This document shows positions 7,612 to 50,319 of a stretch of 64,000 nt of DNA, piece by piece; the first letter of the stretch is position 1; every line of letters starts with the position of its first letter. Under the pieces are notes generated by a model, which saw only the letters and a program-made list of their open reading frames with translations, searched no databases and was not told where the DNA came from. Source of the stretch: a virus (lineage: Duplodnaviria > Caudoviricetes); IMG/VR virus record IMGVR_UViG_3300015214_000029, positions 1-64,000 of that record, one strand, 5' to 3'. The translations under genes were made by a program, and so were the position numbers.

Positions 7612-8529
7612 ATGGTTTGGGTTACACCTTCACTGCGGGGTGTGGAAGAGATTACGCCCGCCATCTGGAATCAGGATGTGGTGGAGAACTCTATCTACCT
7701 GCACAATCTCCTGGGCGGGCACAATGCGGTCGGGGGGCGGCTGACGGCTGTCAGCGGCACACCTCTTGGGGACGTTGAGGGAGCGAGCACTCTCTTTTTC
7801 ACCCCGTACATTCACGACCGGGTCCCAACCTGGGATGGGAATCGCTGGATCGTGCGGCAGTTCACCCAGGTGTCGATGTCCCTGCATGGACACGATGCCA
7901 ACAGGAACTATGACGTGTTCCTGGTCTGGGATGGTGTGAACTACTCCATGACCGATGTCGTCTGGACCAACGATACGACACGCGCGGTTTCTTTCGCCCG
8001 TTCGGGCGGGATGTTGGTAGACTCTTTACATCCCGACCGGCTCTTCCTGGGTACCTTCCGCACGCGCGGTGATGTAGCAACCCAGACCAATGACTCTCCC
8101 GGCTTCCGTATGATTTCCAACTACTTTAACCGGAGGCCCCGCCCCCTGTCAGCTGTCCTGGCGAACTCGGCGGGGACGGTCTCACAGACGACTGCGGAGA
8201 TTGCGACTGGCTTCCGGGTTCACTACGTGTCCTGCCGCACCGATAACTTTCTGGACATCTCCTGGATGGGCAGCTTCTATGACAGCACCAGCCGGGCCAA
8301 TAACTATCAGATGCGGAACAACAACGAGAATATTAAGGCAGTGATTTATCTGGGGGATCAGTCTGGGGCAAGCTCCAATCATGGGGCTCCGGTCCACCTG
8401 CGCTATGCTGGAATGGCCCCCCTGGGCTGGGAGTACATTAAGATCTACGGCTCGGCCTCTGCCAGCAACAGCTTCAAGTGGCAGATTTACGGCACGCCCA
8501 CCGGCACTGTCGGGTATATCTGGGGGTGA
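7612..8529 (+). CDS. Minor tail / receptor-binding-type protein
   Basis: Follows the Tal-like gene; 'GRLTAVSGTP...TLFFTPY' tail-protein-like block; its stop codon lies inside the adjacent IS end. Confidence 0.5.
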   Translation: MVWVTPSLRGVEEITPAIWNQDVVENSIYLHNLLGGHNAVGGRLTAVSGTPLGDVEGASTLFFTPYIHDRVPTWDGNRWIVRQFTQVSMSLHGHDANRNYDVFLVWDGVNYSMTDVVWTNDTTRAVSFARSGGMLVDSLHPDRLFLGTFRTRGDVATQTNDSPGFRMISNYFNRRPRPLSAVLANSAGTVSQTTAEIATGFRVHYVSCRTDNFLDISWMGSFYDSTSRANNYQMRNNNENIKAVIYLGDQSGASSNHGAPVHLRYAGMAPLGWEYIKIYGSASASNSFKWQIYGTPTGTVGYIWG

Positions 8530-9777
8530 CTACTCTCCCCCCTGAAGAGGGGAGCTTTTAGGGGTCTAGCCCCACAGCCGATAGCCCTCGGCTGAGAATG
8601 TTCAAAGCGGCGTTTTGGTCGCGGTCCATGACGATGCCGCAGTGAGGACAATTATGCGTGCGAACCGACAGGTCTTTGCGGACAATCTCACCACAACCGG
8701 AACACAACTGCGTCGTGTTTCTGGGGTCAACCTGTGCAAAACCGCGCCCGGCTCCCTCCGCCTTGTACGCGGTGAACTGCACAAACTGCGCCCATGCCAC
8801 GTCCGCAATGCCCCGGTTGATGCTCTTGAAGTTGTCCTGCTGCATGTCGGCGATGTCCAGCTTCTCGAACGCGAGGAACTGGTATTCGTTCACGAGCCGT
8901 CTGCTCCACTGGTGAGCGAAGTCTCGGCGGCGGTTGGCGATGCGCTTATGCGCGTGCCGCAAAGCCCTGACCGCCTTACGTCGCTCCGGTGTCCCCTTTT
9001 CGAGGCGCGACACCCGGCGTTGCAGGCGTTTGAGGTCTTTCTCATCGCGCTGCACCCATCGCTGGCGGGGGATGCGCTCGCCGTTGCTCAGCACAGCGAA
9101 GGTCGTCAGGCCGAGGTCAACGCCCGCCACCCTGTCCGTTGGCGGCAGCAGGTCAGGTTCTACGATGCAGGAGAAGCAGGCGTACCAATTGCCGAGCGCG
9201 TCCCGCCGGATGGTCAGCGTTTTGCACTCACCCCGGAGCGGGCGATGCAGCCTGATCCGCACGTCACCGACCTTCGACAGGCGCACCCGCCCGTTGTCAA
9301 GGAAGCGCCAGTTGCCCTTCTCCTGCGGGTACGTAAAGCTGTCGTATCGGCGGTGCGACTTGAAGCGCGGGTATCCCGCCTTGCCGTTCTGTTCCTTCAC
9401 CCGCTGGAAGAAGGCGCGGAGTGCGAGGTCAGCCCGCTTCTGCGCTTCCTGCATGGCCTGTGCGTGGCCCTGCTGGAGCCACTCGGTTTCCGGCTCCCGC
9501 TTCCACTGGGTCAACAGCTTGTTCGTGTCATAGCGGGAAAGCGACCGCTGTTCGTCCTGCCACGCATCACGCCGGACTTCCAGCGTTTTGTTGTATACCC
9601 AGCGGCAAGCGTCAAGCTGGGCTTGCAGGGCGGTCCGCTGCGCGGCTGTCGGAAACAGGCGGTGCTTAAAGGTCATTCGCATATCCTAATTATACCCGAA
9701 TATCTACACAGCGCAACATGCTGTGTAGCCGCTATTCACCTCCCCACTAAAGTGGGGAGCACTCTAGCGGAGGTTCT
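8526..9777 (-). mobile_element. IS200/IS605-family element (IS1341-type, tnpB only), element A
   Basis: On the - strand: left end AGAACC..AGTG-CTCCCC-actttagt-GGGGAG, right end AAAG-CTCCCC..GGGGAG-AGTAGTCAC; target motif CTAC precedes the left end; no tnpA. Confidence 0.88.
8558..9682 (-). CDS. tnpB: TnpB RNA-guided endonuclease
   Basis: HTH_OrfB N-terminus 'FKHRLFPT', RuvC 'GVDLG', 'AFEKL' and 'DRDQNAALNI', Zn ribbon CSGC..CPHC; catalytic D/E/D intact. Confidence 0.95.
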   Translation of the reverse strand: MRMTFKHRLFPTAAQRTALQAQLDACRWVYNKTLEVRRDAWQDEQRSLSRYDTNKLLTQWKREPETEWLQQGHAQAMQEAQKRADLALRAFFQRVKEQNGKAGYPRFKSHRRYDSFTYPQEKGNWRFLDNGRVRLSKVGDVRIRLHRPLRGECKTLTIRRDALGNWYACFSCIVEPDLLPPTDRVAGVDLGLTTFAVLSNGERIPRQRWVQRDEKDLKRLQRRVSRLEKGTPERRKAVRALRHAHKRIANRRRDFAHQWSRRLVNEYQFLAFEKLDIADMQQDNFKSINRGIADVAWAQFVQFTAYKAEGAGRGFAQVDPRNTTQLCSGCGEIVRKDLSVRTHNCPHCGIVMDRDQNAALNILSRGLSAVGLDP

Positions 9778-9783
9778 GTAGAG

Positions 9784-10065
9784 ATGGAAGACACACGCGA
9801 ACTAGATCAGTTCGTCAAGCGGCTGGTAGGGGAACTTCAGAACCTACAGGAACGGCTGGCGAAGCTGGAAGCGGCAGGGGCGGGGCTGTCCTACCTGGGG
9901 GTGCTCACCGAGCGCGAGGGGGTGCTAACCTACGGGACGAACCCCAAGCGGATCTCCCTGCAACTGCGGGCGGCTCCGCCACTCGCTGCGGGGTATATTG
10001 AGTTTACGGCTCCGGGGCATGGGGCAGGGCCCCAATTTTACCTGGTACTGGAAGACGTGAGCTAG
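9784..10065 (+). CDS. Small hypothetical protein with N-terminal coiled coil (tail region)
   Basis: 93-aa ORF; in the reconstructed empty site it starts 2 nt after the stop of the 7612 gene. Confidence 0.5.
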   Translation: MEDTRELDQFVKRLVGELQNLQERLAKLEAAGAGLSYLGVLTEREGVLTYGTNPKRISLQLRAAPPLAAGYIEFTAPGHGAGPQFYLVLEDVS

Positions 10066-10116
10066 AGACGTGAAGAAAGCGCAGGCAGGGCTGCGCAGGT
10101 CGCGCCTGGCCCGAGT

Positions 10117-10353
10117 CTACTGAAGGCAGGTGGTGAGCAGGATGTAGACCACCAGGAGTGCCTGCATTCCCAGGGATGTGGTCTCCAAGATCAATGCCTG
10201 CTCCGGCCCTACCAAGTAGGTACTACCGTCCGGGTTAAGCACGACAAACGTGTCCCGGTCAGAGAGGGCTCCGAGTACGTGGTGTGGAAACTTCTGGTCC
10301 GAGATCACGTCAAGAGTTGACGAAGATGGGAAATCCCACCACGAGCCGGACAT
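10117..10353 (-). CDS. Small hypothetical protein with hydrophobic C-terminus, probably leaderless
   Basis: ATG at 10353 lies 7 nt downstream of a consensus -10 box; 78 aa ending LGMQALLVVYILLTTCLQ. Confidence 0.4.
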   Translation of the reverse strand: MSGSWWDFPSSSTLDVISDQKFPHHVLGALSDRDTFVVLNPDGSTYLVGPEQALILETTSLGMQALLVVYILLTTCLQ

Positions 10354-10359
10354 GCTGTT

Positions 10360-10388
10360 ATTGTAGATTTTAACACTCTCCCTGTCAA
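10360..10388 (-). promoter_or_regulatory. Sigma70-type promoter, leftward
   Basis: TTGACA (10388-10383), 17 bp, TACAAT (10365-10360). Confidence 0.75.
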
Positions 10389-10585
10389 GTATATACTGGG
10401 GTGGGTGGGGTGGGGCGGCCTCTCCCACGCCTCATCTCGCCCATGCCAACATGGTGGTTTCAAGGACGCTCGCTACCTTTGGACCGGGGCAGGGCTCGGG
10501 CAGAGTCCTGCCCTTAGTTTTAGCCGGAGAACGAGTGCTCGTATAATAGTCTCAGACTACTGATCAGGAGTGTAGAGGACATAAC

Positions 10586-11191
10586 ATGAACCGAGAAATT
10601 TCCTTCAGTGGTGCGCTGGCGGCGAAGGTGCAGAAGGCACCTAAAGCCCCTCTCACCTGGCGGGTGCGCAATACCCTGCGCCCGAGCTTCATCCTGGGCT
10701 GGCTGGCAAACCTGTTGGCGAGGTCCTTTACCCTGCTGACCGGCATCCCCACCCTCACTGCCACCCTCTCGGCGCGGCTGATCAAAGCGTCGGGCGAGGT
10801 GGTGGATTACGGAGTGGTCTGTCACCGGGTGGTGACCACTGCCTTTGCCATTGATCTGGTTGACGAACTTCAGGCTTCTCAGGCGACCTTCTCGACGTAC
10901 AGGTATCACGGGTCGGGCACCGATAACACGGCTGAGGATGCGTCGGATACTGAACTGGGCGTTGAGGTGGAGAGTCGGGCATCGGGTACGCAGACCGAAG
11001 CCAGTACAACCGTTTATCGCTCGGTGGGCACTGTGGCTTACACGGCTACGCGCACCATCGTAGAGCACGGGCTGTTCGACTCATCGTCATCGGGTACCCT
11101 GATGGACCGCTCGGTCTTTACCGGCATCGGTGTGAACTCAGGTGACAGCATCCAGTTCACCTACGATCTGACTGTTAACGCCGGGGGCTAA
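10586..11191 (+). CDS. Tail/baseplate structural protein (tail-collar-like)
   Basis: Ser/Thr/Gly-rich beta protein with 'GSGTDNTAEDASDTELG' and 'EHGLF..SSGTLMDR..F' blocks seen in tail-collar proteins. Confidence 0.55.
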   Translation: MNREISFSGALAAKVQKAPKAPLTWRVRNTLRPSFILGWLANLLARSFTLLTGIPTLTATLSARLIKASGEVVDYGVVCHRVVTTAFAIDLVDELQASQATFSTYRYHGSGTDNTAEDASDTELGVEVESRASGTQTEASTTVYRSVGTVAYTATRTIVEHGLFDSSSSGTLMDRSVFTGIGVNSGDSIQFTYDLTVNAGG

Positions 11192-11225
11192 TTCCGTACC
11201 TCTCGGCTAGTCCATAGGGTGCGGC

Positions 11226-14200
11226 ATGTCCCTGGTAGAGAGTCTTGCAGCCAGGCAGGAACGCTCCCGCCTGTATACATACAGCGACGACCCGACCCGG
11301 TTCCGTTGGGTCGGGTCGAATGCTCCCCTGCACTATCATGACGGTAGTGCCTGGCAGACCATCGATCTCACCCCTGAGCGCATCCAGACCTCTGCTTTTG
11401 ACGGCTGGCAGACGACGCAAGCAGGTTGGCACTACCGGCTGGGCCAGCCACAGGGTGGGGCAGATGGTTGGATTGGGTTCGGGGCGCGGCGGGGGGCATC
11501 CTGGCTCGGCTTTCGCCTGGCCCGGGTGGGTTACCTGCGCTGGAATACCCGGGCCTGGCAGGACATTGGCGGGGCCCCCACCTATGATCGGCGGAACCTC
11601 ACCAACACCCCCCGCTATACCTCAGCAGGCGGGGAACTGCTCGCGACGGCGAGCGAGGTCACCTGGGGCGGCATCTGGTCCACCCCCGGGGGCGGGGACC
11701 TATCCCTCAACTTCCTGCTCAACGGCGAGCGACTGAAAGAAGACATTGTCATCAACCAGGCGGGCCGGGAGTGGATCGCCGCCAACCGCCCGCCGACGAC
11801 GCCTGCCAGTCAGACCTGGTTCGGTTTCGTCTTTCAACTGGACTGGACTAACATCCCGCGCGTCGTGCTGAACGGGCTACTCCAGGACGTAGAGGGGGGC
11901 TGGGACGGCAGCGAGCCGGTTGAACTGCGCGACGCGGCAGATGCGCTGCTGGCGTTGCTGCCCCTTGCCAGTCTGACGGTACAGTCCGGGGGCGCGGTGC
12001 TGGCAGAGACTCCCCTGCGGCGGCGCTTCTGGCGCGACCCGGATGGGAACTATTATCTACTGATTGGGGTACGGGTAAATGTCCTAGCCGGGTTGCCTGC
12101 GGGGGATCTGCATTTCGACCCTACCATTCAAGCCGGTCCGGGAGCCGGGGCAGATGATGGTCACTACCGAACAGATGGAAGCTATAATAATAATTTCTCC
12201 AATGCATCGATAGGGGCGTTTTCTTCCACCGTTGATTCTGGTGCCTTTATTCGGGTACCGGGGCTGACCCTAGATCCGGGCGTGACCATCAACCAGGCGT
12301 ACTTTACGTTTGAAGCCCACTCCACCATGTCGGGGTCGCCCTGTAATGTACTCATCACCTTAAATGATGTAGATGACGCAACGGCTCCAGCAGATAACTC
12401 TGCCTGTATCAACGCCGTTCGTACAACGGCGTCTGGGGCTTGGAATGATATCGAGGCGTGGACAGACAACAGCAACTACGATTCGGCAGACTTCTCTGCG
12501 GCTCTACAAGAGGTCATTGACCGGGCAGGCTGGTCGAGCGGTAACGCAATCTGTGTCTACTTTGACAATAACGGCTCCGCCAGCGGCGCTCAGCGACAGT
12601 TCCGCACCTATAATGGGTCTCCCGCCCCGGTACTCACGGTTGAGTATACCGCAGGGGGGTCCACCACCAACCAGTCGGTGGGTGGCACTCTCAGCCTCAG
12701 CGGTGTGGTGGCGGCACTCAAGACGGTCGTCTCTTCTCTGTCCGGAGCGTTGAGCTTCCTGGGACTGGGGGACCCGGAACCCAGCCCGGCCCGCACCCTG
12801 TACCGGATTAACTGCGGGGGTCCGGCCCTGGCGGGCTGGGATGATGATGCCGGGTATTACACGACTGCGGGTAGCGTGGAATCCACGACAACTGCCCAGG
12901 ACACCTCACTGGTACCTGGCGTGCTGCCCGAGGTCTTGCAGACCCACCGCTGGACGCTGCCTGAAGAGGGAGATGTTATCTACACCTTCGACGTGACCGG
13001 GGAGTCGCTGGTCACCGTCAAGCTGTACTTCTCCGAGATTTTCGCTACCTTTACCAAACCGGGCGACCGGGTTATGGACATCTATGTGGATGGGGTGTTG
13101 AAGGCCAACAACTTCGACCCCTACGTGGCGGCGGGCAACGCCCAGCACAAGGGCTCCAAGCTGGAGTACACTGTCACCCCTGCCGGTACCACCCTGGAAG
13201 TTCGAGCCGTGCGTGTCGTCCATGCGCCCATGTTCTCCGCTATCCTGGTGCAGCGTCCCCCGGTAACCGAGAAGATCCTTGCCGGGGCGCTGTCCTTCGG
13301 CGGAGTAGTGGGGCGGGCTGCGCTTTTTGTGAAGTCTCTGGGGGGCGGGATAGCTTTCAGTGGAGTCCCGGCTCTCATTAAGTCTTTTCTACGCTCCTTT
13401 GGCGGGGAGCTTATACCTGGGGGTAGTCTTAGCCGGGTTGTTTCGTCTCTGCGGGCCGGGGCACTAGCCCTCAGCGGGGCAATTAGCGGATTTTTGCAGG
13501 GTAGCCAGCAGTTTGAGATCAACCACGAAGATGGGACTCTGGGAGAGTACGCCTCTCTCGTAGACTCCGCCGACCTTTCTGTAACGGCGGAGGCAGCATT
13601 AGGGGGAACGGATTACGGGCTGGCGGTTGACATTGATGAGACAGCCAGTTATGGGGTTTATGAACTGGCGTCTCCGGTTGCGGCGACTACGGTACGGGCT
13701 CGCTTTTATGTAGACCCAAACAGCGCCACCTTTAGTACGGGCGGACTCGTTTTCCTGCTGTCTGTTTATCCAAATACCGGTATGTATGCCCTGGGGTACG
13801 TGTGGCTGCGGCACGATGGCACGAGTTTTGAACTCTGTCCTGTAGCCGTAACAGACGCCCCCAGTAATCTGGTTGGGGGGTACTACGACATTACGGACGC
13901 CCCACACTATTGTGAGATCCAGTGGACTCGCGCCAGCAGCGATGTTGCCGCAGACGGCACGATGGACTTCTGGGTAGATGGTGTACACCAGGGCACAACC
14001 ACCGACATCGACAACTGGGACATCTGGGGCGGGTCCAGCAGTGAACTCTCTTTTCTGCGCTTTGGGCAGGCATTCCAGAGCGGAACCCTCTCCGGGACCT
14101 TTTATGTTGACGAGCTAGTCATCAACAATACCGGTAATGAGATCGGCCCTCTGGAACAATTATACCAGCAGGTGGTGGGGGGTGTGCTGGCCCTTGCGGG

Positions 14201-15821: not shown

Positions 15822-15828
15822 TCTCGGG

Positions 15829-15853
15829 TCCCCGGGTTTTAGCTCGGGGACCA
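15829..15853 (+). terminator. Stem-loop after the tail fibre gene
   Basis: GGTCCCCGGG-ttttag-CTCGGGGACC; no clear U-tract. Confidence 0.4.
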
Positions 15854-15904
15854 ACCCCCCTATAATACTCACAGGCACAACCGCATACTCTGGGAGAGAA
15901 CTTT

Positions 15905-35394: not shown

Positions 35395-35745
35395 TCAGGC
35401 CCCCCGGTAGCGGTCCTCGCCGTGCCCCTCGCCGTCGATCAGCCCGGCGCTCGCCCGCTGGTTCAGCCGGTACAGCAGATGGGCAGCGGCATCCTCTAAA
35501 GTAACCCCGAGATCCGTGATGCCCTGGACCACCGCCCAGAGCACATCTTCTAACTCTTCCAGCAGCCGCTCCCGATTCTCGGGCGAGACCACAAAGGGCA
35601 CCGGTTCGCGCCGCATCTGTTTATTGAGGATGCGCTGGGTCTCGCCCGCTTCCTCGACCAGCAGGGCAACCGGGTAGATGACCTGGTTCTCGTCCGGGTA
35701 GATGGCTGTCTCTGCCACCCGCCGCTGTAAGTCGTTGAGTTCCAT
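35395..35745 (-). CDS. mazG: MazG-like nucleotide pyrophosphohydrolase
   Basis: 'LVEEAGE..K' and 'LLEELEDVLWAV' (EExxE...ExxD). Confidence 0.8.
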   Translation of the reverse strand: MELNDLQRRVAETAIYPDENQVIYPVALLVEEAGETQRILNKQMRREPVPFVVSPENRERLLEELEDVLWAVVQGITDLGVTLEDAAAHLLYRLNQRASAGLIDGEGHGEDRYRGA

Positions 35746-35772
35746 AGAATTTGCGGCAGGGTACTCCCCGTT

Positions 35773-36441
35773 TTAACGGGGAGGGGAATGCCGCCTTCCT
35801 CCTTTTGCGCTTCTCACGATGTGGTGCATCACCTGCCGCCCGAGAAATTCGCTGTACGCGGGCGGGATGGCTTGCGCGGTCTCGCGCTGCGTCATGTACC
35901 AGTCGATGCCCATTGCCGCCCGCCCCTCCGCTACCCCGCTGAAATGGCCGAAGATGCTCCACACCTCGCCCTCGTCCTGCGGCTGGCGTCCGGTGCGCGG
36001 TGCCCGCAACCCCAGCGCCTTGTGCGAAACGTGCTCGGGTGCTACCAGCGGCAGGTTGCTCTCGAAGTAGCGATGCCGGAACATCCGCAGTCCGAACATC
36101 GTGCCGCACAGCATCACAGGGTTGTGCAGCGGTGCGCCTGCTACGTTCTCAATAATGTACGGCTTGCCGCTATCCACGAGCAGCGCCCGCGCTGCCGCTA
36201 CCAGGTCGGGGTACTCGTTGCCGAGTACGTTATTCAGCGACGTATACGCCTGGCACGGCGGGCTTGCCCAGATGAGGTCAAATGTGCCGAGGTCGAGCGG
36301 CGGGCGTAGCGCGTCGCCCCGCACGAAGGCGAACGGGTAGTTCGGCTGGTTGCCAATATCGACACCCACGACCTCGAAGCCCGCCATGTGCAGGCCCATC
36401 GCCGCGCCGCCCGCGCCGCAGAACAAGTCCAGCGCCTTCAT
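35773..36441 (-). CDS. DNA cytosine-5 methyltransferase (short phage type), cargo of element B
   Basis: Motif I 'LDLFCGAGG', IV 'ASPPCQ', VI 'IIENV', VIII 'RHRYFE', X 'QAIPPAYSEFLG'; stop codon lies within the IS left-end hairpin. Confidence 0.9.
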   Translation of the reverse strand: MKALDLFCGAGGAAMGLHMAGFEVVGVDIGNQPNYPFAFVRGDALRPPLDLGTFDLIWASPPCQAYTSLNNVLGNEYPDLVAAARALLVDSGKPYIIENVAGAPLHNPVMLCGTMFGLRMFRHRYFESNLPLVAPEHVSHKALGLRAPRTGRQPQDEGEVWSIFGHFSGVAEGRAAMGIDWYMTQRETAQAIPPAYSEFLGRQVMHHIVRSAKGGRRHSPPR

Positions 36442-36504
36442 CTCACGCCACCGCCAGCTGCGTGTACGTAGAACAAAAGTGCGCGTTGACCATGTTATCC
36501 CTCT

Positions 36505-36606
36505 CTGAATATTCTCTCCGCCGGGACGCGGCCCCCAGACGCTAACGTGGGCCACGATGCCGTGCGTAGTCTGGGAAGCTCCCCCTTTAAGGGGGAGAGC
36601 CGTCAC
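36505..36606 (+). ncRNA. Retained 3' tnpB/omega-RNA scaffold segment
   Basis: Translates as LNILSAGTRPPDANVGHDAVRSLGSSPF, nearly identical to the TnpB C-terminus at 50218-50303; guide would be the flank CAGAGCTCCATG. Confidence 0.6.
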
Positions 36607-36803
36607 CAGAGCTCCATGTCTTCGGGGTCTGCCTTGACCCCTGCCGGACAGCAGCAGCGTCGCCAGTAAGCCCGGCCCCAGTAACAAGTTGTTAGTTCTT
36701 CAGTTGCCGGGTAGAGTTCGACCAGATAGGTGCCCCGCCCGCCACACTCGCACGAACAGGGGTCCTCTTCCTCTACCGGCCGCCCATCTACCCAAACAGT
36801 CAT
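36603..36803 (-). CDS. Small Cys-rich hypothetical protein
   Basis: CSCEC..C..CCC; last codons W-stop completed by the IS right end. Confidence 0.5.
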   Translation of the reverse strand: MTVWVDGRPVEEEDPCSCECGGRGTYLVELYPATEELTTCYWGRAYWRRCCCPAGVKADPEDMELW

Positions 36804-37744: not shown

Positions 37745-37981
37745 TTACCCCCAGTGAGCTTGATGTTTGTGCCGGTAACAGTAGGCATACCCGCCGACCA
37801 CTGCTCCGGTCTTAATATCTACTACCTCTGGACAGAACGCTGTTTGTCCCCAGGGTTGATAACTACAGGTCACCTCTCCCCGGCGAATGTGACTCTTCAA
37901 ATGACTGGCCCAGCCCAGTCCGTTTGATGTGACTAGCTTCCCACAATAATGACACCTGCGTTTACCATAAGTTCTGCCCAT
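37745..37981 (-). CDS. Small zinc-finger protein
   Basis: CHYC...H..H. Confidence 0.5.
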   Translation of the reverse strand: MGRTYGKRRCHYCGKLVTSNGLGWASHLKSHIRRGEVTCSYQPWGQTAFCPEVVDIKTGAVVGGYAYCYRHKHQAHWG

Positions 37982-38331
37982 CAGCCCACCACCATAAACC
38001 TCAGTAACTCAACCCCGAACCGGTACAGGAACTCCGGGATCGGGCGGGGGACGGCTCCCCTCAGCAGCAGCCAGAACACGATGTCTGGGTGTGGCCTATA
38101 GAGTTCATTCCCCCGCCCGCTAGTGCGGAGCCTGTGGCGCTCGAAGCGGTACTTGGCTTCCTCTTCAAGCTCCCTGCCCCTGTCCGGGAAGACCCTGAGC
38201 AGGTACGTGTGCGGGTTGCTGGTCATATATGTATTCAGTCGGTTTTCTACATCGACAGCAAGCCCGAACTTGAAATACCCGCCCACCTGGATCACATACC
38301 CATCTGGGTTCTTACGCCTGCCCCGCCTCAT
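37981..38331 (-). CDS. T5orf172/GIY-YIG-like protein
   Basis: 'GYVIQ..YFKFGLAVDVENRL..Y.TSNP..E...HRL..ELY'. Confidence 0.7.
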   Translation of the reverse strand: MRRGRRKNPDGYVIQVGGYFKFGLAVDVENRLNTYMTSNPHTYLLRVFPDRGRELEEEAKYRFERHRLRTSGRGNELYRPHPDIVFWLLLRGAVPRPIPEFLYRFGVELLRFMVVG

Positions 38332-40727: not shown

Positions 40728-40846
40728 TCTACTTCTCAGTATATTCTATTGCCTTTTCCTTGTCAAGAGGTTTCGACAAGAATCGTCAAGACCCGGGCCA
40801 CACACCCCGGGTCCCGACTTCAAGGAGTCTAGTATGAGTGTGTTGG
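40728..40846. repeat. 119-bp direct repeat, copy 1 (promoter + palindrome + AGGAGTCTAGTATG)
   Basis: Aligns end to end with 42466-42584; leftward TTGACA-17-TATACT at 40766-40738; 13-8-13 palindrome at 40785-40818. Confidence 0.92.
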
Positions 40847-40911: not shown

Positions 40912-42444
40912 TCAGTCTGGCTTTTTCCATATCGTAATGCTTTTTCGCAAAGCTTCTCTCCCAAACCTCTTCATTTGCTGGCTGCTGTTGCCCTTACGAT
41001 TAGGAAGCACATACACTATTTGCGGTTCATAGCCGAGTTGTTCCGCCAAGTGGGTAGTCAACAAGTCAACGGGTATCACTTCGCCTCCGTATCGCACATT
41101 GTCATTTACGAAGGCAACATGGGCTCCGGGTTGACACGTGCGCAATACTTCCGCGAATACAAACGCCAGTTCAATGAAGTACCCCTCTACCATTGACAGA
41201 ATCCCCCGATTGTTGATCTCGCCCCTCTCCCAGCGAATCCTAAGTGCTTCGTTTACCTCTTGAAACACTGGGTTTGATAGTACTATGTCAAGGGTACGCT
41301 CGAAACGATCAGAGGCATCGATTGACGCATAGTAATCTCTCAGCTGTTCTACTTTCGAACGGTGTTCGACCGTGCATGACAGCTGACTCTGACGTAGTTC
41401 ACGAATCTCCTCTTCATCCACCTTCAGATAGGCAAGTTCAAGTGCATATGTCCGTGTGTAATCATACCTGTTACAGTAAGGTGGAGATGTAATTACTCCT
41501 GCGAACTGATTGGATTCTAGCGTAGGCAAGATTTGCAGAGCGCTTCCTTTGAAAAGGGTCGCTTGACCCTTCGTCCTTGACGCAAGCTGGAGTTCCTTCA
41601 CGTCATCAACAATGGTACTTAACGCGCGAATTAAGGCATCTTTGACAGTAGGCAGATCGCCCTTGTCCATTCCTTTGATGAGACGTTTTCCTTGCCAAGC
41701 ACGCTCTCGATTCCTCTGTCTCACCTTGTCCGATCTGCTGTCCCAACGCAGGTATTGACCATCTTTACGTGTAAAACTGACTTCTTCGAGAATACTGGTC
41801 AGGACAAGTCGTAATAGCACTTTCGCTTCTACGGAAACGTCAAGTAGATCGAACCACTCAGTATAGAACATCAAATCGTTTTCAGTCGTATCGGGAAACG
41901 CACTGTCAGTGATTGCAAGATGCGGAAACCTGTGACGAGCAGGTCCCGGTTCAGTTTCTTCGATGAGCTCTAAGATCCTTTCCAGTTCGTCCGTATCATA
42001 TTCGAACGCATGTGACTTGGCCTCCCATGCTAGATGACAGACAGGGAGAATTTCGATGCCGACTGCATTGATCCCATTTGCTATTGCGACCAGTAAAGTA
42101 GTTGCGGATCCACTAAATGGCTCAAGTAGTGTTTGACCTGGCTGAATGCCGAATTTATTAATCAATGACTGGACAAGTTCTGCGGAAAAGCCCTCACGGT
42201 ACTTGATCCAGCTATGAACCATTTCTCCTTTGTTGCCTTGATAGCTGACAAGCTGTCGATTGAACTCGTCAGTCTCTTCAAGTAACATCATATACTGTCG
42301 CTCTAGTTGACGACGGGCATTCTGAGGGCAGACATCCTCGTGAGAAAAGGTTGTGCGCACCAAGTCTTTTCGATTGGTATTCAAATCGTTTGAATTCAGC
42401 GGTAAAGGCAGTTGCTTCACTCTAATTCCCCTAAATTGTGTCAT
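40912..42444 (-). CDS. N4-cytosine DNA methyltransferase, M.AvaI/M.BsoBI-like
   Basis: 'LEPFSGS', 'RKDGQYLRWD', 'ITSPPYCNRYDYTRTYALELA', 'VNDNVRY', 'KGNSSQQM' match my recollection of M.AvaI; visibly AT-richer than its neighbours. Confidence 0.85.
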   Translation of the reverse strand: MTQFRGIRVKQLPLPLNSNDLNTNRKDLVRTTFSHEDVCPQNARRQLERQYMMLLEETDEFNRQLVSYQGNKGEMVHSWIKYREGFSAELVQSLINKFGIQPGQTLLEPFSGSATTLLVAIANGINAVGIEILPVCHLAWEAKSHAFEYDTDELERILELIEETEPGPARHRFPHLAITDSAFPDTTENDLMFYTEWFDLLDVSVEAKVLLRLVLTSILEEVSFTRKDGQYLRWDSRSDKVRQRNRERAWQGKRLIKGMDKGDLPTVKDALIRALSTIVDDVKELQLASRTKGQATLFKGSALQILPTLESNQFAGVITSPPYCNRYDYTRTYALELAYLKVDEEEIRELRQSQLSCTVEHRSKVEQLRDYYASIDASDRFERTLDIVLSNPVFQEVNEALRIRWERGEINNRGILSMVEGYFIELAFVFAEVLRTCQPGAHVAFVNDNVRYGGEVIPVDLLTTHLAEQLGYEPQIVYVLPNRKGNSSQQMKRFGREALRKSITIWKKPD

Positions 42445-42465
42445 TCTGGTCTAATCAGGTTCCGT

Positions 42466-42584
42466 TCTACTTCTCAGTGTATTCTTTTGCCTTTTCCTTG
42501 TCAAGAGGTTTCGACAAGAATCGTCAGGACCCGGGGTGTGCGGTCCGGGTCCTGACTTCAAGGAGTCTAGTATGAGTGTGTTGG
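42466..42584. repeat. 119-bp direct repeat, copy 2
   Basis: Leftward TTGACA-17-TACACT at 42504-42476; palindrome at 42523-42556. Confidence 0.92.
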
Positions 42585-42628
42585 GCGGGGCTGTGTCATT
42601 TCCCCTCACTCAATACCATGATACTCTG

Positions 42629-43628: not shown

Positions 43629-43629
43629 A

Positions 43630-44499
43630 CTAGACTCCTTCCTCTTCGTCGTCTACAAAGTAAACCAGGTTGAGATCCGACCGCTGCTTCATTGCCAGCA
43701 GGATCTTCTCATCCGTGCTCACGTTCAACATCCTCAGTATCCGGTTGATGCCCTGCTTAGCGAGGTCATCGTTGTCACTGAAGTAGAGTTCCCCGATGGG
43801 AGCAGACCTGCCGTTCTGCAAAACCACCAGCAGGGGTCCTTCCAGCCGGAAGCGCAGGTTATAGTCCGGCCCATCCCCTTCCGGGCTGTAGAGCGCCATG
43901 CGTAGCTGGCTGACCGTCGCCCCGGGGTCCATTGCCAGGGCCAACAGCTTGGGCTGGTTGTCCAGGTCCCTGCTGCGAGCCAGCGGGGTGAGTAGGACCA
44001 ACTTCGAGATGTCGGTCCGGGTCGGGTCCCAGCTTACCTCTCGCATGATCGGCCTGTTATCCTCACCCATGACTGGCTCTCCCCGCTCATCCCGCTCGGG
44101 AATCTTGATGGGGACGCCTGGCGTATAGTTGTCCTCGATGAAGACCTTAGCCGCCCGCATGTAGTTCTCGATGGTGTCGATAGACAACTCCCCGCCCGTT
44201 TCCTTGAGAGCAAACGTTTCAAACTGGAGCCCGTACTGCTTCCTGAAGTCCAGGTCCAGTTCGTTCCAGTTCTTCTTGAACAGCCAGAGCGTGTGCGCCT
44301 CGATAATCGAGACCCCCCGCTTGACCCCCACCGCCATACGCAGCAGACTCAGCATGTGCTGAGTCCACTGGGTACGGTTCTCTTCGGTTAGCTCGGGCAG
44401 CGATTTCAGGGTGCTGATAATGCGCTGCACCATTGCCGTCGCGCCCTCTGCCGAGAGGTTAGCAATGTTCAACCCACGAAACAGGTCCAAATCTGACAT
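43630..44499 (-). CDS. Hypothetical protein
   Basis: 289-aa ORF with AGGA RBS. Confidence 0.6.
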   Translation of the reverse strand: MSDLDLFRGLNIANLSAEGATAMVQRIISTLKSLPELTEENRTQWTQHMLSLLRMAVGVKRGVSIIEAHTLWLFKKNWNELDLDFRKQYGLQFETFALKETGGELSIDTIENYMRAAKVFIEDNYTPGVPIKIPERDERGEPVMGEDNRPIMREVSWDPTRTDISKLVLLTPLARSRDLDNQPKLLALAMDPGATVSQLRMALYSPEGDGPDYNLRFRLEGPLLVVLQNGRSAPIGELYFSDNDDLAKQGINRILRMLNVSTDEKILLAMKQRSDLNLVYFVDDEEEGV

Positions 44500-44530
44500 T
44501 TAGAAGTCCTCATGAGTAGTAGATGTTGGG

Positions 44531-45274
44531 TTAGTGTTGGATGATCTTGGCAATCATGACCAACCAATCCGGGGAATCCGGATCGCTCAGCATGATAATA
44601 TTGGGCCTTGTCTCGGGTACCGTGATACGAGTCCTCTCTCCCATCAACATCGCCAAGCGGCTGACGTAGTCTGAGTTCAAGGTCAGCGGCTCGGTGTGCG
44701 CCTGCTCGATGTCCCCCGCCAGGGGCACATACTCCACCTCACCCACTTCCGTCGCCTGAACCGTGCCCCACACATCCGACTCGGTAATGTGAACGCTGAT
44801 GAACCGCAGGTTGTTGGGCGGCATCCCCGGCATAACCCGGCTGATTTTGATCAGGGAGCGCAGCGCCTCACTCTCCACCGTCAACCCGACCATAATCGGG
44901 TCTCGGGCAGCGGTCTCTGCACTCTCTACCGGCAAGGGTGCCCGGGCCTGAACTGCCAGGCTCGCCTTGAACCCGTTGTCCCCCCGCAGGGACACACGCT
45001 TATTATACGACAAAGTCAGGGTTTCTGCCCTAGATGCTTTCACGAGTTGTGACAGCGGCTCTGACAGGTAGAACTCCCCATCCTCGTCACACTCCACCAC
45101 CTGGGGATAAGCCAGGACGAGTCCAATCGCCCCGGCTGGCCCCTCGATGCTGGCAGCGAGGCGCAGAAAACCATCCTTCACCACAAACCCAATGGCTGGA
45201 GCCGCCTCGGGCATCAGCCCGTTGATCTTATCCAGCCAGGGCCGCAGCGACCCGGTCTCGACGGTAATTTTCAT
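44531..45274 (-). CDS. Putative sliding clamp (beta-clamp-like)
   Basis: 'MKITV..L' start, beta/alpha repeat pattern, directly downstream of the polymerase. Confidence 0.4.
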   Translation of the reverse strand: MKITVETGSLRPWLDKINGLMPEAAPAIGFVVKDGFLRLAASIEGPAGAIGLVLAYPQVVECDEDGEFYLSEPLSQLVKASRAETLTLSYNKRVSLRGDNGFKASLAVQARAPLPVESAETAARDPIMVGLTVESEALRSLIKISRVMPGMPPNNLRFISVHITESDVWGTVQATEVGEVEYVPLAGDIEQAHTEPLTLNSDYVSRLAMLMGERTRITVPETRPNIIMLSDPDSPDWLVMIAKIIQH

Positions 45275-47063
45275 CCTTTGACCACCTATGCATTAAGTCG
45301 GTTTCAGCTATCGTCTTGACATCCGGGCAGATTTCTTGTCCGGCCTGCTCCATTGCTGCCGTTACCTGGTAAGCGGCAAAGTCCTCGATCTCCCGGTTGG
45401 TGCGCACCACTAGCTCGTCGTGGATCTGGAGCGCGATTGCCGCGTCTGGCTGGTCGGGCTCGATCCACTGCTCGTAGAGCAGCACCATTGCATACTTCAT
45501 CATGTCCGCTGCCGTGCCCTGGATGGGCATGTTGCGGGCTTCCCTGCCGATCTTCCAGTCTTCCATCTGGGTCCGGTTGGGCCACCAGCGACGCCTGCCC
45601 CAGCGAGTGCTGGCGTATCCGTAGCGCATGACCTTCGGCCCCTGCTGGTCGCCCCAGGCGAACATGCCGGGGAAGGTCTGGCGCAGGTTATTGTAGAACT
45701 CCCGGGCCTGCGCCTCGGATACATTCAACACCTGCCGCAGTTTGTTGACCCCACCCCCGTAACCCGCCGCCAGAACCCCTTGCTTGAACATCTGTCGCTC
45801 GGCTTTGGTAATCTTCCGCCCCAGAGTCAACTCCCCGAAAGCGATATACACATCCTCTTCATTACAGGCACGGATCAGGTTCGGGTCCCCGCAGATCTGT
45901 GCCATGACGCGCGGTTCCTGCTGCGCGTAGTCAGAGACCGTGAAGATGTACTGTTCCTCAGCCAGTGTTGGCCCGGGCTTTGACTGGGGCAGGAACAAAC
46001 GCCGGATGTCGGGCTCACCCTCGACCGGGCGGGCTCTCACATTCTGTAGGTTTGGGTCCTTGCAGCTATAGCGTCCAGTACCCGGCCCGTTCTGGTTCCA
46101 GTCCGGGTGTATCCGGCCTGTGACCGGGTTGATGTGGCTGGGGTAGTCCAGTTTCCACATCGTATTCCAGTTCGCCCAGTCCAGGTAGTCCCGCAGGAAG
46201 ATCACACGCGGGTCTTCGTCCGGGCTGCGCAGCGTGCTTTCCAGATGATCCAGGACAGCCTCAAGCTCGGGAGCCTGGGTCGTCTCTACCTGGATGCCAA
46301 ACGTCTCCAGCAACCACTGGCGCTGTGCCGTGCTGTTCAGGTTGACGATGGGCGTTGCCTCGTCCCCGAAGAGCGTGGTTTGCAGGGGCACGTTCAGGTA
46401 CTTTGCCATGTGTGCCACTCGCTGGCGCAGGGTTCGCTCGATGACCTGGGTGTACTCGTCCCACAGGTTCAGGTCAAAGCCCACCCCCTCTAAATACATG
46501 TGGGTCGTGACTCGCACCAGCCGGTTCTCGATGCCAACGATGCGCCCGATGCCCTGGTTGCTGATGTCTTCCATCTGCTGGCGGCGGATCTCAGGCAGGT
46601 AGAGTACGTCCTTCTCCATGTACTCAAGCTGCCGGGCGGTGAAGTCGCCGCTGTGCTCGAAGAACGACAGCCGCACTGCCTCATCCTTGTTGACTCCCAG
46701 CCGCCGCAGCAAGACGTTTGCCAGGGCATTGCTGCGCGTCCGGTCTCCGGCGTACAGCAGTCGCTCCACGACCAGGGTATCCCACACATTAGTGGTGATT
46801 ATCCCCAACTTGTGGTTGAGGAAAGCCAGGTCAAAGCGGGCGTTGTGCGCGATCTTCGTCTGCTTCGGGTTGGTCAGGATGGGGACCAGTTGTTCGAAGT
46901 GATCCCGCAGCACGAACGCCTGCTCCCCATCCGACACCTGTACCGACAGCATCCGGTCCTGCCAGGGGTTGGCGGTTTTCTTTTTGTTTGTGACGGTGGT
47001 CTCGATGTCGATCCCGAGCACCGGAACCCCGTATATGTATTCAGGTAGCCTATCGACCAGCAT
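45228..47063 (-). CDS. polA: DNA polymerase family A with 3'-5' exonuclease
   Basis: Exo 'GIDIET', 'HNARFD', 'YMEKDV'; motif A 'SDYAQQEPR', B 'RQMFK...YG', C 'IHDEL'. Confidence 0.95.
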   Translation of the reverse strand: MLVDRLPEYIYGVPVLGIDIETTVTNKKKTANPWQDRMLSVQVSDGEQAFVLRDHFEQLVPILTNPKQTKIAHNARFDLAFLNHKLGIITTNVWDTLVVERLLYAGDRTRSNALANVLLRRLGVNKDEAVRLSFFEHSGDFTARQLEYMEKDVLYLPEIRRQQMEDISNQGIGRIVGIENRLVRVTTHMYLEGVGFDLNLWDEYTQVIERTLRQRVAHMAKYLNVPLQTTLFGDEATPIVNLNSTAQRQWLLETFGIQVETTQAPELEAVLDHLESTLRSPDEDPRVIFLRDYLDWANWNTMWKLDYPSHINPVTGRIHPDWNQNGPGTGRYSCKDPNLQNVRARPVEGEPDIRRLFLPQSKPGPTLAEEQYIFTVSDYAQQEPRVMAQICGDPNLIRACNEEDVYIAFGELTLGRKITKAERQMFKQGVLAAGYGGGVNKLRQVLNVSEAQAREFYNNLRQTFPGMFAWGDQQGPKVMRYGYASTRWGRRRWWPNRTQMEDWKIGREARNMPIQGTAADMMKYAMVLLYEQWIEPDQPDAAIALQIHDELVVRTNREIEDFAAYQVTAAMEQAGQEICPDVKTIAETDLMHRWSKDENYRRDRVAAALAG

Positions 47064-47075
47064 GTTACCGCTCCC

Positions 47076-48665
47076 CTAGAACAGTGTGGACTGCGTCTGC
47101 TCTTCTGGACTGGGCTTGCTCAGAACTCGCTCGGCCCGCCGCTCCAGCACCGGGTCCAGCTTCCCACCTACCTTTGAGACGAACTGCTCCAAGTGTGAAA
47201 ATACCTGCCGCCTGCCGGTGTACATGTCCTCACCCAGCAGCGGAGTATAGATCCGGTTGTACTGGGGCTCCCAGCCAATGCGCACATTGACCCCCGGGAC
47301 TCCGCCCCGGTACTTCTGCACCAGCAACCAGACGTGCCCGGCGTCCATGCCCTCGGGTACCTCGAAGTCGATGCCCACCTGCGCCATGTAGATGGGATTC
47401 CAGACTTCAGCCATGATGTCCGAGGCGTGCCGTAGCGATTGGCTGTAGCGGGTGCCCCCTACCCCGGCGATCTTGAACCGGTTGCTGCCGGTCTCCCCGC
47501 CGAAGGATGACTGGCTGATGACGATGATCGACGCCCCGAGCATACGGCTGAGCGCCTGGTAGTTGTGGATCAGCCGGTCCAGCCACTCTTCTTTGGACAT
47601 GCCGGGCAGTCGCTTGTCCCCGTGCAGTTCCATGTAGTCGGCGGACATCTGCCATACCGGGCCTTTGTCCCCGGTATGCATGGAGTCCAGCCGGTACTCA
47701 ATGGCACTGGTCTCCGCCAGGTTGGTGTCATCTACGTACAGGGGCAGCACCCCCAGCCGCTCCACCCAATCCTTGAACCGGATGTACTCGGGTGAATTTT
47801 TGAACGTGTCCGGCTTGCGGCGCAGCCGGGTGGTGTCGAACCCCGAGAGCATTGCCGCTGAGCGGAACAGCAGGTCTACGTCCTGCATCTCCATCGAGTT
47901 GATGGCTACGCAGCCCTGTATCCCATTGACATACAGCCCCATTGCCGTGCCCAGGTTGACGGCATGAACCAGGCCCGACTTGAAGGACCCCGCCATGCCG
48001 TGAATGGTGGTCAGCGTGCGAACCGGGAACAACCCCGCTTCCAGGAAAGGCTCAAACCCACAGGGCAGCAGAGAGAGTTGCTTACCACTCTCAATGTCTC
48101 CCAGCCGGGCCAGGGCATCCTCAGCCACGAAGCTGAGGTGTTTGTAGCCCGCCTCGTCTGTGCGTAAAAACTCCCGTAGATCCCGCACATACCCGTTCAT
48201 CCACTCGACCGGGTCCCCGATCTCCCCAATTGCCTTCTCGAAGGAGTCGGGATCGTCCAACACCCGGCCCATCACCCGGCTGCGCAGTGCCGTCCGGTAG
48301 AGGATGCCAACCCGGTCTACCTGCTGGACGTGGTAGCGGTAGCCCTGGTAGTCGAACTCGGTGATGCCCCAATACTGGGGCATCTTGTCCACCAGAGTCT
48401 TAACGTACCGGCGCAGTTCGGTCTTGACGGTGGGCGGCAGGGAGTCCACCACGTTCGCCACCGTGATGCCCTTGCGGTCCATGAAGCAGATCTGGATCGC
48501 CTGCCAGATAGCGGCGTGGTCCTGGTGCCCGGTGTCATAACGCCCCTCGGCATCATAGATGAATTTGTCATGGGTCAGTTCACCCAGTGCCTCACGAGTT
48601 TGATCGGGAAACAACAGGGTATAGCCCAGGACGATCTGCTCGCGCTCGTAAGGTGAGATCTGCAT
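47076..48665 (-). CDS. dnaB: DnaB-like replicative helicase
   Basis: Walker A 'GMAGSFKS', 'SMEM', Walker B 'ADYMEL', 'IVISQ', 'KYRGG'. Confidence 0.8.
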   Translation of the reverse strand: MQISPYEREQIVLGYTLLFPDQTREALGELTHDKFIYDAEGRYDTGHQDHAAIWQAIQICFMDRKGITVANVVDSLPPTVKTELRRYVKTLVDKMPQYWGITEFDYQGYRYHVQQVDRVGILYRTALRSRVMGRVLDDPDSFEKAIGEIGDPVEWMNGYVRDLREFLRTDEAGYKHLSFVAEDALARLGDIESGKQLSLLPCGFEPFLEAGLFPVRTLTTIHGMAGSFKSGLVHAVNLGTAMGLYVNGIQGCVAINSMEMQDVDLLFRSAAMLSGFDTTRLRRKPDTFKNSPEYIRFKDWVERLGVLPLYVDDTNLAETSAIEYRLDSMHTGDKGPVWQMSADYMELHGDKRLPGMSKEEWLDRLIHNYQALSRMLGASIIVISQSSFGGETGSNRFKIAGVGGTRYSQSLRHASDIMAEVWNPIYMAQVGIDFEVPEGMDAGHVWLLVQKYRGGVPGVNVRIGWEPQYNRIYTPLLGEDMYTGRRQVFSHLEQFVSKVGGKLDPVLERRAERVLSKPSPEEQTQSTLF

Positions 48666-48666
48666 G

Positions 48667-48957
48667 TTACTTAAACCAATCCATGTCAACATGGTTGACG
48701 TACAGCTTGCCGCTGGGCATCCGCTCGTTGCGGATCACCTCCAAACCCAGCAGGGTATCCGGCAGGTCCTCGATCCCGTGCGGGTTGACCAACAGGTGAG
48801 TCGGCTTGCGGTAGTACCGCTTCTCAAACTGGCGGATGGCTCGCCGGGTCTCATCGGTGATGATCTCCAGGCTCGACCCCCGCTGACTGAAGCTGCGAAC
48901 GATCCCGCTGAACTTGAGATCCTGGGTGCCCACTGCCGGGCGTCGCTTTAGGTCCAT
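48667..48957 (-). CDS. Hypothetical protein, paralog of 34417-34629
   Basis: Shared RA..F/Y..KY..P...VHP/VNP..GLE pattern; start codon abuts the IS left end. Confidence 0.55.
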   Translation of the reverse strand: MDLKRRPAVGTQDLKFSGIVRSFSQRGSSLEIITDETRRAIRQFEKRYYRKPTHLLVNPHGIEDLPDTLLGLEVIRNERMPSGKLYVNHVDMDWFK

Positions 48958-50319
48958 AGAATTTGCGGCAGGGTACTCCCCGTTTTAACGGGGAGGGGAA
49001 TGCCGCCTTCCTCCTTTTGCGCTCCTCAGAAATGTGGTATAATTCGTTTGTCTAGGAACGGTACCCGTGAGCGGATTTTTGCTTTATGGCCCCCAAAGGC
49101 ACGGGTGTTCCTAGACACAACACCGCAGGCCTGCGGGGGTCGCCGCTTTTTGAGGGTACGATGATCCGCACCTACAAGCACCGGCTGTACCCGACGCCCG
49201 ATCAGGAAGTCGTGATGCACGACATCCTGTGGGCGGGCTGTTGGCTGTACAACCGGGCGCTCGACTACCGCCGCCGTCGCTGGTACGAGAGCCGCCACAG
49301 CGTCAGCTACTACGAGCAGGCGGGCATGTGGCGCGACTGGCGCAACGAGCAGCCAGACGATAACCCGCTGCGCGTCCTCAACATGAGCGCCGGTCAGCAA
49401 GTTCTGCGCCGCCTCGACAACACCTACCGCGAGTTCTTCAAGGGCAAGCGGGGCAGGCCCCGCTTCAAGCGCCACGACCGCTTCAACAGCGTCAACTTCA
49501 AGCCGGGCGACGGGGCCGCCCTCAAGGGCCGCAAGCTGTACCTGCAAAACGTTGGCCTCGTCACTGTGCGCTGGCACCGCAGCCTGCCCGACGAAGCGAA
49601 GCTCAAGAACATCATCCTGCTGCGCAAGCCGTCCGGCTGGTACGTGCTGCTGCAAGTTGATCTGCCTGATGTCGAGCCGGAGCCAAGCGACAAGCCCGCC
49701 ATTGGGATCGATGTGGGTATTCACCACGCTCTCGCTCTTTCCGATGGCACGATCATCGACAGCCCCAAGTACCTTGAGCAGTCGCTCAAGAAGCTCCGCC
49801 GTCTCCAGCGCCGGGTCGCCCGTCGCAAGAAGGGCAGCAAGGGCTGGTGGCGGGCTGTGCATCAAGTCGCCAAACAGCATGAGCACATCGCCAACCAGCG
49901 CCGGGATTGGTGGCACAAAGTCACGACGTGGCTTGTGCAGAATTACGGCACTATCGCGCTTGAGGACTTGAACCTCAGCTTCCTGCTTCGCAACGGCAGT
50001 CTCGCACGCCACGCCCATGACGTGGGGTTGGGCATCTTCTACAAGCTTCTCGACTACAAGGCTATGGAGGCCGGAGTCGAGATCGTGAAGGTGAACCCCG
50101 CTTACACGTCGCAGGTGTGCAGCGAGTGCGGCTGTATTGTCGAGAAGAAGCTGAGTGAGCGCGAACACTGTTGTCCTCACTGCGGGTTTACAGCCGACAG
50201 GGATGTAAACGCCGCTCTGAACATTTTGTGGGCCGGGACGCGGCCCCCAGACGCTAACGTGAGCCACGAGGCTGTGCGTAGTCTGGGAAGCTCCCCCTTT
50301 TAAGGGGGAGAGCCGTCAC
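48958..50319 (+). mobile_element. IS200/IS605-family element (IS1341-type, tnpB only), element C
   Basis: Target CCAT; left end AGAATT..GGTA-CTCCCCG-tttt-aaCGGGGAG; right end GAAG-CTCCCCC-ttttaa-GGGGGAG-AGCCGTCAC; TGTGGTATAAT promoter box. Confidence 0.9.
49161..50303 (+). CDS. tnpB: TnpB RNA-guided endonuclease
   Basis: 'YKHRLYPT', RuvC 'GIDVG', 'ALEDL', 'DRDVNAALNI', CSEC..CPHC; alternative start at 49086. Confidence 0.95.
   Translation: MIRTYKHRLYPTPDQEVVMHDILWAGCWLYNRALDYRRRRWYESRHSVSYYEQAGMWRDWRNEQPDDNPLRVLNMSAGQQVLRRLDNTYREFFKGKRGRPRFKRHDRFNSVNFKPGDGAALKGRKLYLQNVGLVTVRWHRSLPDEAKLKNIILLRKPSGWYVLLQVDLPDVEPEPSDKPAIGIDVGIHHALALSDGTIIDSPKYLEQSLKKLRRLQRRVARRKKGSKGWWRAVHQVAKQHEHIANQRRDWWHKVTTWLVQNYGTIALEDLNLSFLLRNGSLARHAHDVGLGIFYKLLDYKAMEAGVEIVKVNPAYTSQVCSECGCIVEKKLSEREHCCPHCGFTADRDVNAALNILWAGTRPPDANVSHEAVRSLGSSPF

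Follow-up and report, generated by a model that had tools for sequence, protein, structure and literature searches.

IS608 of Helicobacter pylori, the closest described counterpart of the elements considered here, has a subterminal hairpin at each end, lacks inverted repeats and does not duplicate its target. It inserts 3′ of a tetranucleotide, which is recognised through the four bases that precede the left-end hairpin. The phage genome IMGVR_UViG_3300015214_000029 (IMG/VR virus record; Caudoviricetes; 85,755 bp, direct terminal repeats, 59% G+C, rated complete) carries four IS200/IS605 elements of this organization, A to D. A, B and C lie in the window analysed here, the first 64 kb (64,000 nt) of the record. 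A, C and D are tnpB-type, and B has the ends of C without tnpB. B and C are presence/absence polymorphic at fixed sites among near-identical phages. We consider, with reasonable confidence, that the elements as a whole are best explained by IS608-like insertion mobilised in trans, a survival filter that removes gene-disrupting copies, and probable persistence through TnpB.

The likeness to IS608 extends to the pairing geometry between target (t) and guide (g) bases (t1:g2, t2:g1 and t4:g4, with an unpaired A at t3) and to the spacing, with 17–19 nt from target to hairpin foot versus 19 in IS608, and a right-end cut 8–10 nt after the foot versus 10. Targets and right ends are different: CCAT, CTAC and TCAT here versus TTAC, and TCAC or TGAC versus TCAA. 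In further contrast to IS608, the phage copies have no tnpA, an additional 6-bp outer stem encloses the left-end hairpin, and the elements are known from sequence. The TnpB of ISDra2 (Karvelis 2021, PMC8612924; Meers 2023) shares helix-turn-helix (HTH), RuvC and zinc-ribbon domains with those found here; as in that system, the RNA scaffold would be expected to lie across the last part of tnpB and the right end, the guide would come from the right flank, and the target motif would equal the transposase target, although the motif is predicted in our case. The setting differs too, being a virulent-looking phage population with natural element-free alleles changed in the motif-proximal seed. IS1341-type tnpB-only elements and PATEs (palindrome-associated transposable elements) likewise lack tnpA and need mobilisation in trans, as do gene-less chromosomal copies described below, whereas B holds a passenger methyltransferase gene in place of tnpB. 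T4-like free-standing homing endonuclease genes (intronless homing) are also small selfish nuclease genes between conserved phage genes; their presence varies between closely related phages, and they are believed to spread through cleavage of genomes that lack them. They differ in that an RNA guide and a 4-nt motif are predicted here and transposon ends set exact boundaries.

The targets and ends are new instances rather than a new mechanism, and they fit IS608/ISDra2-like non-autonomous elements. What is new is that no element-free allele matches the element-bearing phage over the nine leading bases of the predicted TnpB guide target. In the literature searched, we found no account of phage insertions in which an IS200/IS605 element at a gene junction restores the stop codon.

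Element anatomy and natural empty sites

Positions are those of the window, except for D, which lies beyond it and is given in genome coordinates.

Element A: 8526–9777, minus strand; tnpB-only IS200/IS605 element with three TnpB Pfam domains; relatives at four other sites, all after CTAC
TnpB of A: 8558–9682, within element A
Left end of A: hairpin 9740–9759; guide AGTG 9760–9763 (reverse complement); fold z = −3.7
Right end of A: hairpin 8535–8554; guide AAAG 8555–8558 (reverse complement); TCAC 8526–8529 (reverse complement)
Target of A: CTAC 9778–9781, minus strand; GTAG on the gene strand, containing the original TAG stop of gene 7612–8529
Element B: 35746–36606, plus strand; ends as in C, with a C5 DNA methyltransferase open reading frame (ORF) instead of tnpB
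Methyltransferase ORF of B: 35773–36441, minus strand (gene strand); Pfam match
Left end of B: guide GGTA 35760–35763; hairpin 35764–35783
Right end of B: guide GAAG 36575–36578; hairpin 36579–36597; TCAC 36603–36606
Target of B: CCAT 35742–35745, plus strand; antisense of the ATGG start of the MazG-like gene 35395–35745
Element C: 48958–50319, plus strand; tnpB-only IS200/IS605 element
TnpB of C: 49161–50303, within element C
Left end of C: guide GGTA 48972–48975; hairpin 48976–48995
Right end of C: guide GAAG 50287–50290; hairpin 50291–50310; TCAC 50316–50319
Target of C: CCAT 48954–48957, plus strand; antisense of the ATGG start of the 96-aa gene 48667–48957
Element D: genome positions 72121–73348, minus strand; follows TCAT, ends in TGAC, antisense; holds the third TnpB, found by genome-wide search

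The TnpB proteins of A, C and D match PF12323, PF01385 and PF07282 (HTH, RuvC-like and zinc-ribbon), B being without TnpB, and the RuvC D, E and D columns are invariant over 15 aligned sequences including those of A and C. The TnpB of D belongs to a different subfamily from those of A and C and has 98 matches in viral contigs; the closest TnpB relatives come from Chloroflexota, mostly Anaerolineae. The left ends of B and C correspond over 71 nt and their right ends over 107 nt; in this terminal 107-nt part, B is 89% identical to C. Left-end folds reach −15.9 and −13.4 kcal/mol (z = −3.7) and right-end hairpins are present with weaker z-scores; long inverted repeats (at least 40 nt) are absent within the window. 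A search for a Y1 (HUH) transposase gave no PF01797 match anywhere in the 85.7-kb genome, so TnpA would have to be supplied in trans. Relatives with the same ends do encode a Y1 transposase (L008, E = 2e-35), and full elements sharing guide, target and right end carry tnpA, which makes mobilisation of the phage copies in trans plausible and marks them as non-autonomous tnpB-only (IS1341-type) derivatives.

All coordinates and sequence statements that the first-pass annotation had given for A, B and C held when regions and ORFs were re-read. Each of the three is antisense to the local phage genes, and its TCAC end, reverse complemented, supplies G and TGA to the upstream gene. At A, this end contributes the final G and the TGA to gene 7612–8529 (305 aa). 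The gene upstream of B ends CTC TGG TGA, next to the MazG-like start (the reverse complement of 35743–35745), and the primase gene 50316–51686 ends TTC TGG TGA at C, next to the start of the 96-aa gene (the reverse complement of 48955–48957). The rebuilt empty sites read GGG TAG AG ATG (A), CTC TGA TGG AA (B) and TTC TGA TGG AC (C).

For B and C such sites exist in nature. Contigs of three runs (X2, X3 and X5; compost, soil and invertebrate gut metagenomes) link 48957 directly to 50320, skipping 1362 nt with nothing between, in phages whose flanks are ~98–99% identical to those of the element-bearing phage. Exact-protein look-ups gave five such C-free contigs (L327–L331) reading TTC TGA TGG ACC, which also prove the boundaries of C; their primase has 455 residues rather than 456 and overlaps the 96-aa gene by one base. 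The site of B is empty in a relative (L333), with a TGATGG overlap of the 66-aa and MazG-like genes and one extra codon. Where B and C begin and end, that a Trp is added and that no target duplication arises are thereby observed rather than deduced. The earlier proposals that the empty sites of B and C are TGATG stop/start overlaps, and that insertion adds a Trp and a new stop while leaving the downstream ATG intact, are thus seen in wild sequences. No empty site was found for A or D, for which exact-protein look-ups returned the occupied form only (the source sample and one ENA assembly). X2, X3 and X5 also hold near-identical copies of the ends of C beside other flanks; the element therefore occupies further sites in these communities. 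A B-type junction (left end into methyltransferase) occurs in contigs of X2 and X3.

Several details concern the gene carried by B. On the gene strand, the GTGA of its right end not only terminates the upstream 66-aa gene but could also serve as a GTG start; an ORF opening there crosses the right end in frame (55 codons) and continues into the methyltransferase. The gene caller's product at 35773–36606 has 277 aa, and the methyltransferase stop lies inside the left-end hairpin. No IS ends adjoin homologues of this methyltransferase in the top 80 viral loci encoding them.

Guide and target pairing

IS608 is said to combine the right-end guide GAAT with the cleavage site TCAA. At that end, C-3 pairs with G-35 and T-4 with A-34, while A-2 of the cleavage site, named as TCAA, is left without a guide base to pair with (He et al. 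2011, PMC3201880). These contacts, together with the GAAT/TCAA combination, imply that the final bases of cleavage site and guide would pair with each other. We accordingly used the rule t1:g2, t2:g1 and t4:g4, with t3 (always A) unpaired, and applied it once alignment with B and C had fixed where A and D begin and end. The outcome at each end was as follows.

Left ends of B and C: target CCAT, guide GGTA, fully complementary
Left end of A: target CTAC, guide AGTG, fully complementary (the rule predicts CT.C from AGTG)
Left end of D: target TCAT, guide GATA, fully complementary
Right ends of B and C: TCAC, guide GAAG, fully complementary
Right end of D: TGAC, guide CAAG, fully complementary
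Right end of A: TCAC, guide AAAG, one mismatch

The expectation that the guide tetranucleotide pairs with the target as in IS608 is therefore borne out at every left end, as is the stated contrast at the right, where GAAG of B and C fits TCAC and AAAG of A leaves one mismatch. All relatives of A have GAAG at the right end, which identifies the AAAG of A (8555–8558) as a derived change. Plain position-by-position pairing was also tried and fails for A and D, whereas the published crossed pairing fits all.

Relatives conserve the targets and covary with them. In G001, a metagenome-assembled genome of a Phototrophicaceae member (a 6-Mb Chloroflexota chromosome), 71 right ends of the CCAT/TCAC family were located (L094–L164), and CCAT precedes 48 of 48 insertions in a search that left the first two target bases free. 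The 71 include about 25 copies of a 400-nt TnpB-less derivative with the same ends and a retained omega-RNA-like region, and about 10 miniatures of 60–77 nt in which the left end is fused to the right end; such gene-less copies show that these ends get moved in trans. Elsewhere, 17 further loci of the C family, including Paracoccaceae and viral contigs, pair GG.A with CCAT, ~40 viral loci of the D family pair GA.A with TCAT, and the relatives of A at their four other sites pair AGGG with CTAC. Covarying variants include GAAG with TCAC (L180), AAAA with TTAT (L058 and L059) and AAGG after TCAC (L340). Among right ends of the D family, 7 have CAAG and TGAC, 12 have AAAG and TTAC, and one departs from the pattern (p = 2e-5, ignoring phylogeny, as do all covariation counts). 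One end-detection scan required complementarity and is circular for covariation; this affects neither the 48 of 48 in G001 nor the D right-end and A-relative sets. The phage thus offers a natural illustration of transposon-directed target choice, with three guide/target pairs in one genome following the IS608 rule and wild empty sites to match, and it yields predicted target motifs (CCAT, CTAC and TCAT) for three compact TnpB lineages.

A separate observation concerns tandem arrays. Several contigs (L340, L342–L346, L348 and L349) carry an A-family element right after two solo right ends of the same family, and the left guide of the arrayed element is shifted from AGGG to AAGG, matching the T of the preceding TCAC.

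Gene-junction placement and its probable survival filter

The first-pass annotation had offered an either/or for the junction placement: targets evolved for safe-harbour insertion, or only such insertions survive in compact phage genomes. The targets contain CAT or CTA, so that survivors in a compact genome would lie mostly antisense on start or stop codons. With the four elements removed, the phage has 81,052 bp and is 92.5% coding by a crude ORF call. It contains 610 CCAT sites, with 530 in ORFs, 44 on antisense start codons and 29 intergenic; the harmless sites number 80, and antisense starts make up 44 of these 80. The CTAC and TCAT site classes resemble this picture. Under uniform site use, the chance that A, B and C all miss ORF interiors is p = 0.002; once survival is given, finding both B and C on antisense starts has p = 0.30. 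One unoccupied site of the same kind, CCATCAG at 37978–37984 (plus strand), was confirmed as a TGATG stop/start overlap of two minus-strand ORFs, 37981–38331 and 37745–37981.

The chromosomal copies in G001 allow a direct comparison with control CCAT sites in the same flanks (n = 3194). Only 29% of insertions with both ends defined (n = 49) lie inside ORFs, compared with 83% of controls (p = 2e-16), and 53% are intergenic, compared with 12.6%. Among the non-interior sites, the ratio of codon-coincident to intergenic positions is 9:26 for insertions and 144:404 for controls (p = 1.0), and the enrichment at junctions over random target sites that had been proposed as a check is thus absent among harmless sites. 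Of 20 insertions in viral contigs, 7 fall on antisense starts, compared with 50 of 570 controls (p = 0.0016); when only harmless sites are counted (8:3 versus 58:53), the excess is not significant (p = 0.22). Two further observations point the same way as G001. The relatives of A are found within phage-like operons and are sense-oriented there, and D, which is antisense, adjoins the ATG of an 85-aa gene with ~150 nt of intergenic sequence and a hairpin between it and the preceding stop codon. The earlier statement that all elements sit antisense at stop codons consequently stands for A, B and C in the window and fails for the genome as a whole, where D departs from the stop codon. Together, G001, the sense-oriented relatives of A and the position of D favour the survival side of the either/or, and an evolved safe harbour is not needed. 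A fixed 4-nt target plus loss of gene-disrupting insertions is the simplest account of the junction placement, and no special targeting is required for it in compact genomes.

We regard as improbable the alternative that these subfamilies were selected for start- and stop-codon complements (xCAT, CTAC) and for TCAC/TTAC ends as an adaptation to compact phage genomes. It would explain why three different subfamilies in one phage all have start- or stop-complement targets, why the opposite strand of TCAC and TTAC ends gives G-TGA and G-TAA, and why the TCAT family is abundant in viral contigs (the 98 matches noted above), TCAT being the antisense of the common ATGA overlap; the antisense-start coincidence in viral contigs would agree with it, as would a joint probability of ~0.02 under pure survivorship. 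However, the CCAT family is chromosomal and accompanied by tnpA in Chloroflexota and Paracoccaceae, its G001 copies have no junction preference among harmless sites while 29% of them sit in ORFs, the viral excess fades among harmless sites, and the relatives of A are sense-oriented. Moreover, the transpososome has structural needs, namely A as the third target base and often T as the first (PMC3201880), which by themselves favour TNA-like words; the A at position 3 and the T-4/A-2 contact also account in part for TCAC and TTAC ends reading as opposite-strand stops. The target motif itself could still be an adaptation, which leaves some room for a safe harbour.

The uniform antisense orientation might instead reflect a preference of IS200/IS605 elements for one replication strand (the lagging-strand template) rather than for genes. 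A strand bias of IS608 and ISDra2 has reportedly been described, and each of the four elements is on the strand that is richer in C in its arm, with GC skew switching between arms. Phage genes are on the plus strand up to ~31 kb (structural genes) and on the minus strand beyond (primase, DnaB-like helicase and DNA polymerase), and GC skew follows gene strand exactly across the genome, so that replication and transcription are not separable here. Bacterial convention would, in addition, put the elements on the wrong strand, and survivorship alone yields ~0.23 for all four being antisense. We therefore consider a replication-strand explanation highly improbable.

Under the favoured combination of trans-mobilised insertion and survival, A, B, C and D would belong to three IS200/IS605 subfamilies as non-autonomous members. 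A Y1 transposase acting in trans would have inserted them in single-stranded form, 3′ of the family tetranucleotide (CCAT in the case of B and C, CTAC in that of A and TCAT in that of D). Target choice would lie with the left end of the element itself, through IS608-type pairing of the tetranucleotide 5′ of the hairpin. Because the targets are complements of ATGG, ATGA and GTAG and the phage is mostly coding, purifying selection would leave survivors mostly antisense on a start or stop codon. The conserved TCAC right end presents G-TGA to the opposite strand, so that a cut after codon position 2 re-creates the stop with the downstream ATG kept. TnpB with its right-end RNA would then probably cut element-free alleles at the target motif plus right flank, aiding persistence.

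Several points weigh against this account. Given survival, the joint chance of all four phage copies lying on a codon rather than between genes is only ~0.02, so that some extra preference may exist. ORF calling was crude (greedy longest ORFs) and noisy or misclassifying for some short phage genes, making the viral-contig counts rough. Where A and D begin and end was set by alignment with B and C and by comparison with relatives. With its mismatched right-end guide, A may no longer be able to excise. Finally, Rfam gave a single weak, sub-threshold match on the right end of C, to HgcC (23.4 bits, E = 0.045).

Element-free alleles and possible RNA-guided homing

If TnpB acts here with a right-end RNA, its guide would be read from the sequence to the right of the element, with guide base 1 being the first base after TCAC (0-based offset +0).

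Predicted guide segment of the omega-RNA of C: 50320–50339, plus strand; equals the protospacer in element-free phages
Predicted guide segment of the retained omega-RNA end of B: 36607–36626, plus strand

The haplotype set comprises two loci and three haplotypes, run X3 being left out. At the C site, one element-free haplotype has changes at guide bases 6 and 9 (offsets +5 and +8), both synonymous, and another has a change at guide base 8 (offset +7); the next difference is at offset +85, and on the other side the nearest is 165 nt off. Three of the 11 private substitutions at this locus fall within the 16-nt guide (p = 1e-4). The element-free allele at the B site (L333) has an indel and a substitution within the first few guide bases, with the next difference on the same side ~20 nt away. 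On the opposite side, the nearest differences over the two loci are 165–347 nt distant. All three haplotypes thus deviate within the first 9 nt after the target motif, in surroundings of ~900 nt that differ by only 0.8–1.7%. This pattern suggests a pressure from RNA-guided homing, as far as sequence comparison can indicate.

A tentative possibility is therefore that TnpB and right-end RNA cut element-free genomes during co-infection, that repair copies the element in, and that the present positions reflect spread and retention at a few sites instead of repeated transposition; this would add to the favoured explanation without replacing the initial choice of target. It would accommodate the presence or absence of B and C among phages with ~99% identical flanks, the intact appearance of the TnpB of C, the retention by B of the last 107 nt of the tnpB/right-end region, and the clustering of the private C-locus substitutions at guide positions 6–9. 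On the other hand, the data amount to two loci and three haplotypes, and the varying bases lie in a G-run at the C-terminal codons of a gene, which may just be a variable stretch. JGI metagenome contigs, scanned twice by pattern, gave no empty-site variant of C or B, perfect-match or other, and look-ups of the 66-aa protein beside B gave no additional haplotypes.

The placement on start codons would acquire a further meaning under such homing. With CCAT fixed as the start codon (ATGG) of the adjacent gene, escape from cleavage would be open only through guide-proximal seed mutation. It remains doubtful, in our view, that TnpB is an RNA-guided homing nuclease here, that the start-codon-locked motif has made seed escape variants of the wild element-free alleles, and that start-codon insertion blocks escape through the motif; if so, such insertion would serve the element by removing motif escape, beyond sparing the host gene, and the escape variants would comprise three independent changes at guide positions 6–9 of the C site (two of them synonymous) and the indel at the B site. 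Near-identical phages with and without B and C in public runs make RNA-guided homing and escape directly testable, which we see as the more useful lead.

Other features of the phage and its relatives

The best-matching run for the phage is a landfill metagenome. Element C has no BLAST match among 50,697 deposited phage records, and a search of viral contigs for relatives of the flanking primase and the 305-aa gene gave nothing useful. Within the window, two direct repeats of ~119 bp (40728–40846 and 42466–42584; 96–98% identical) flank a 510-aa minus-strand ORF (40912–42444). A second phage, IMGVR_UViG_3300036984_000039 (107.5 kb; L055 and L167), holds both an A-like and a D-like TnpB, and the combination thus recurs.

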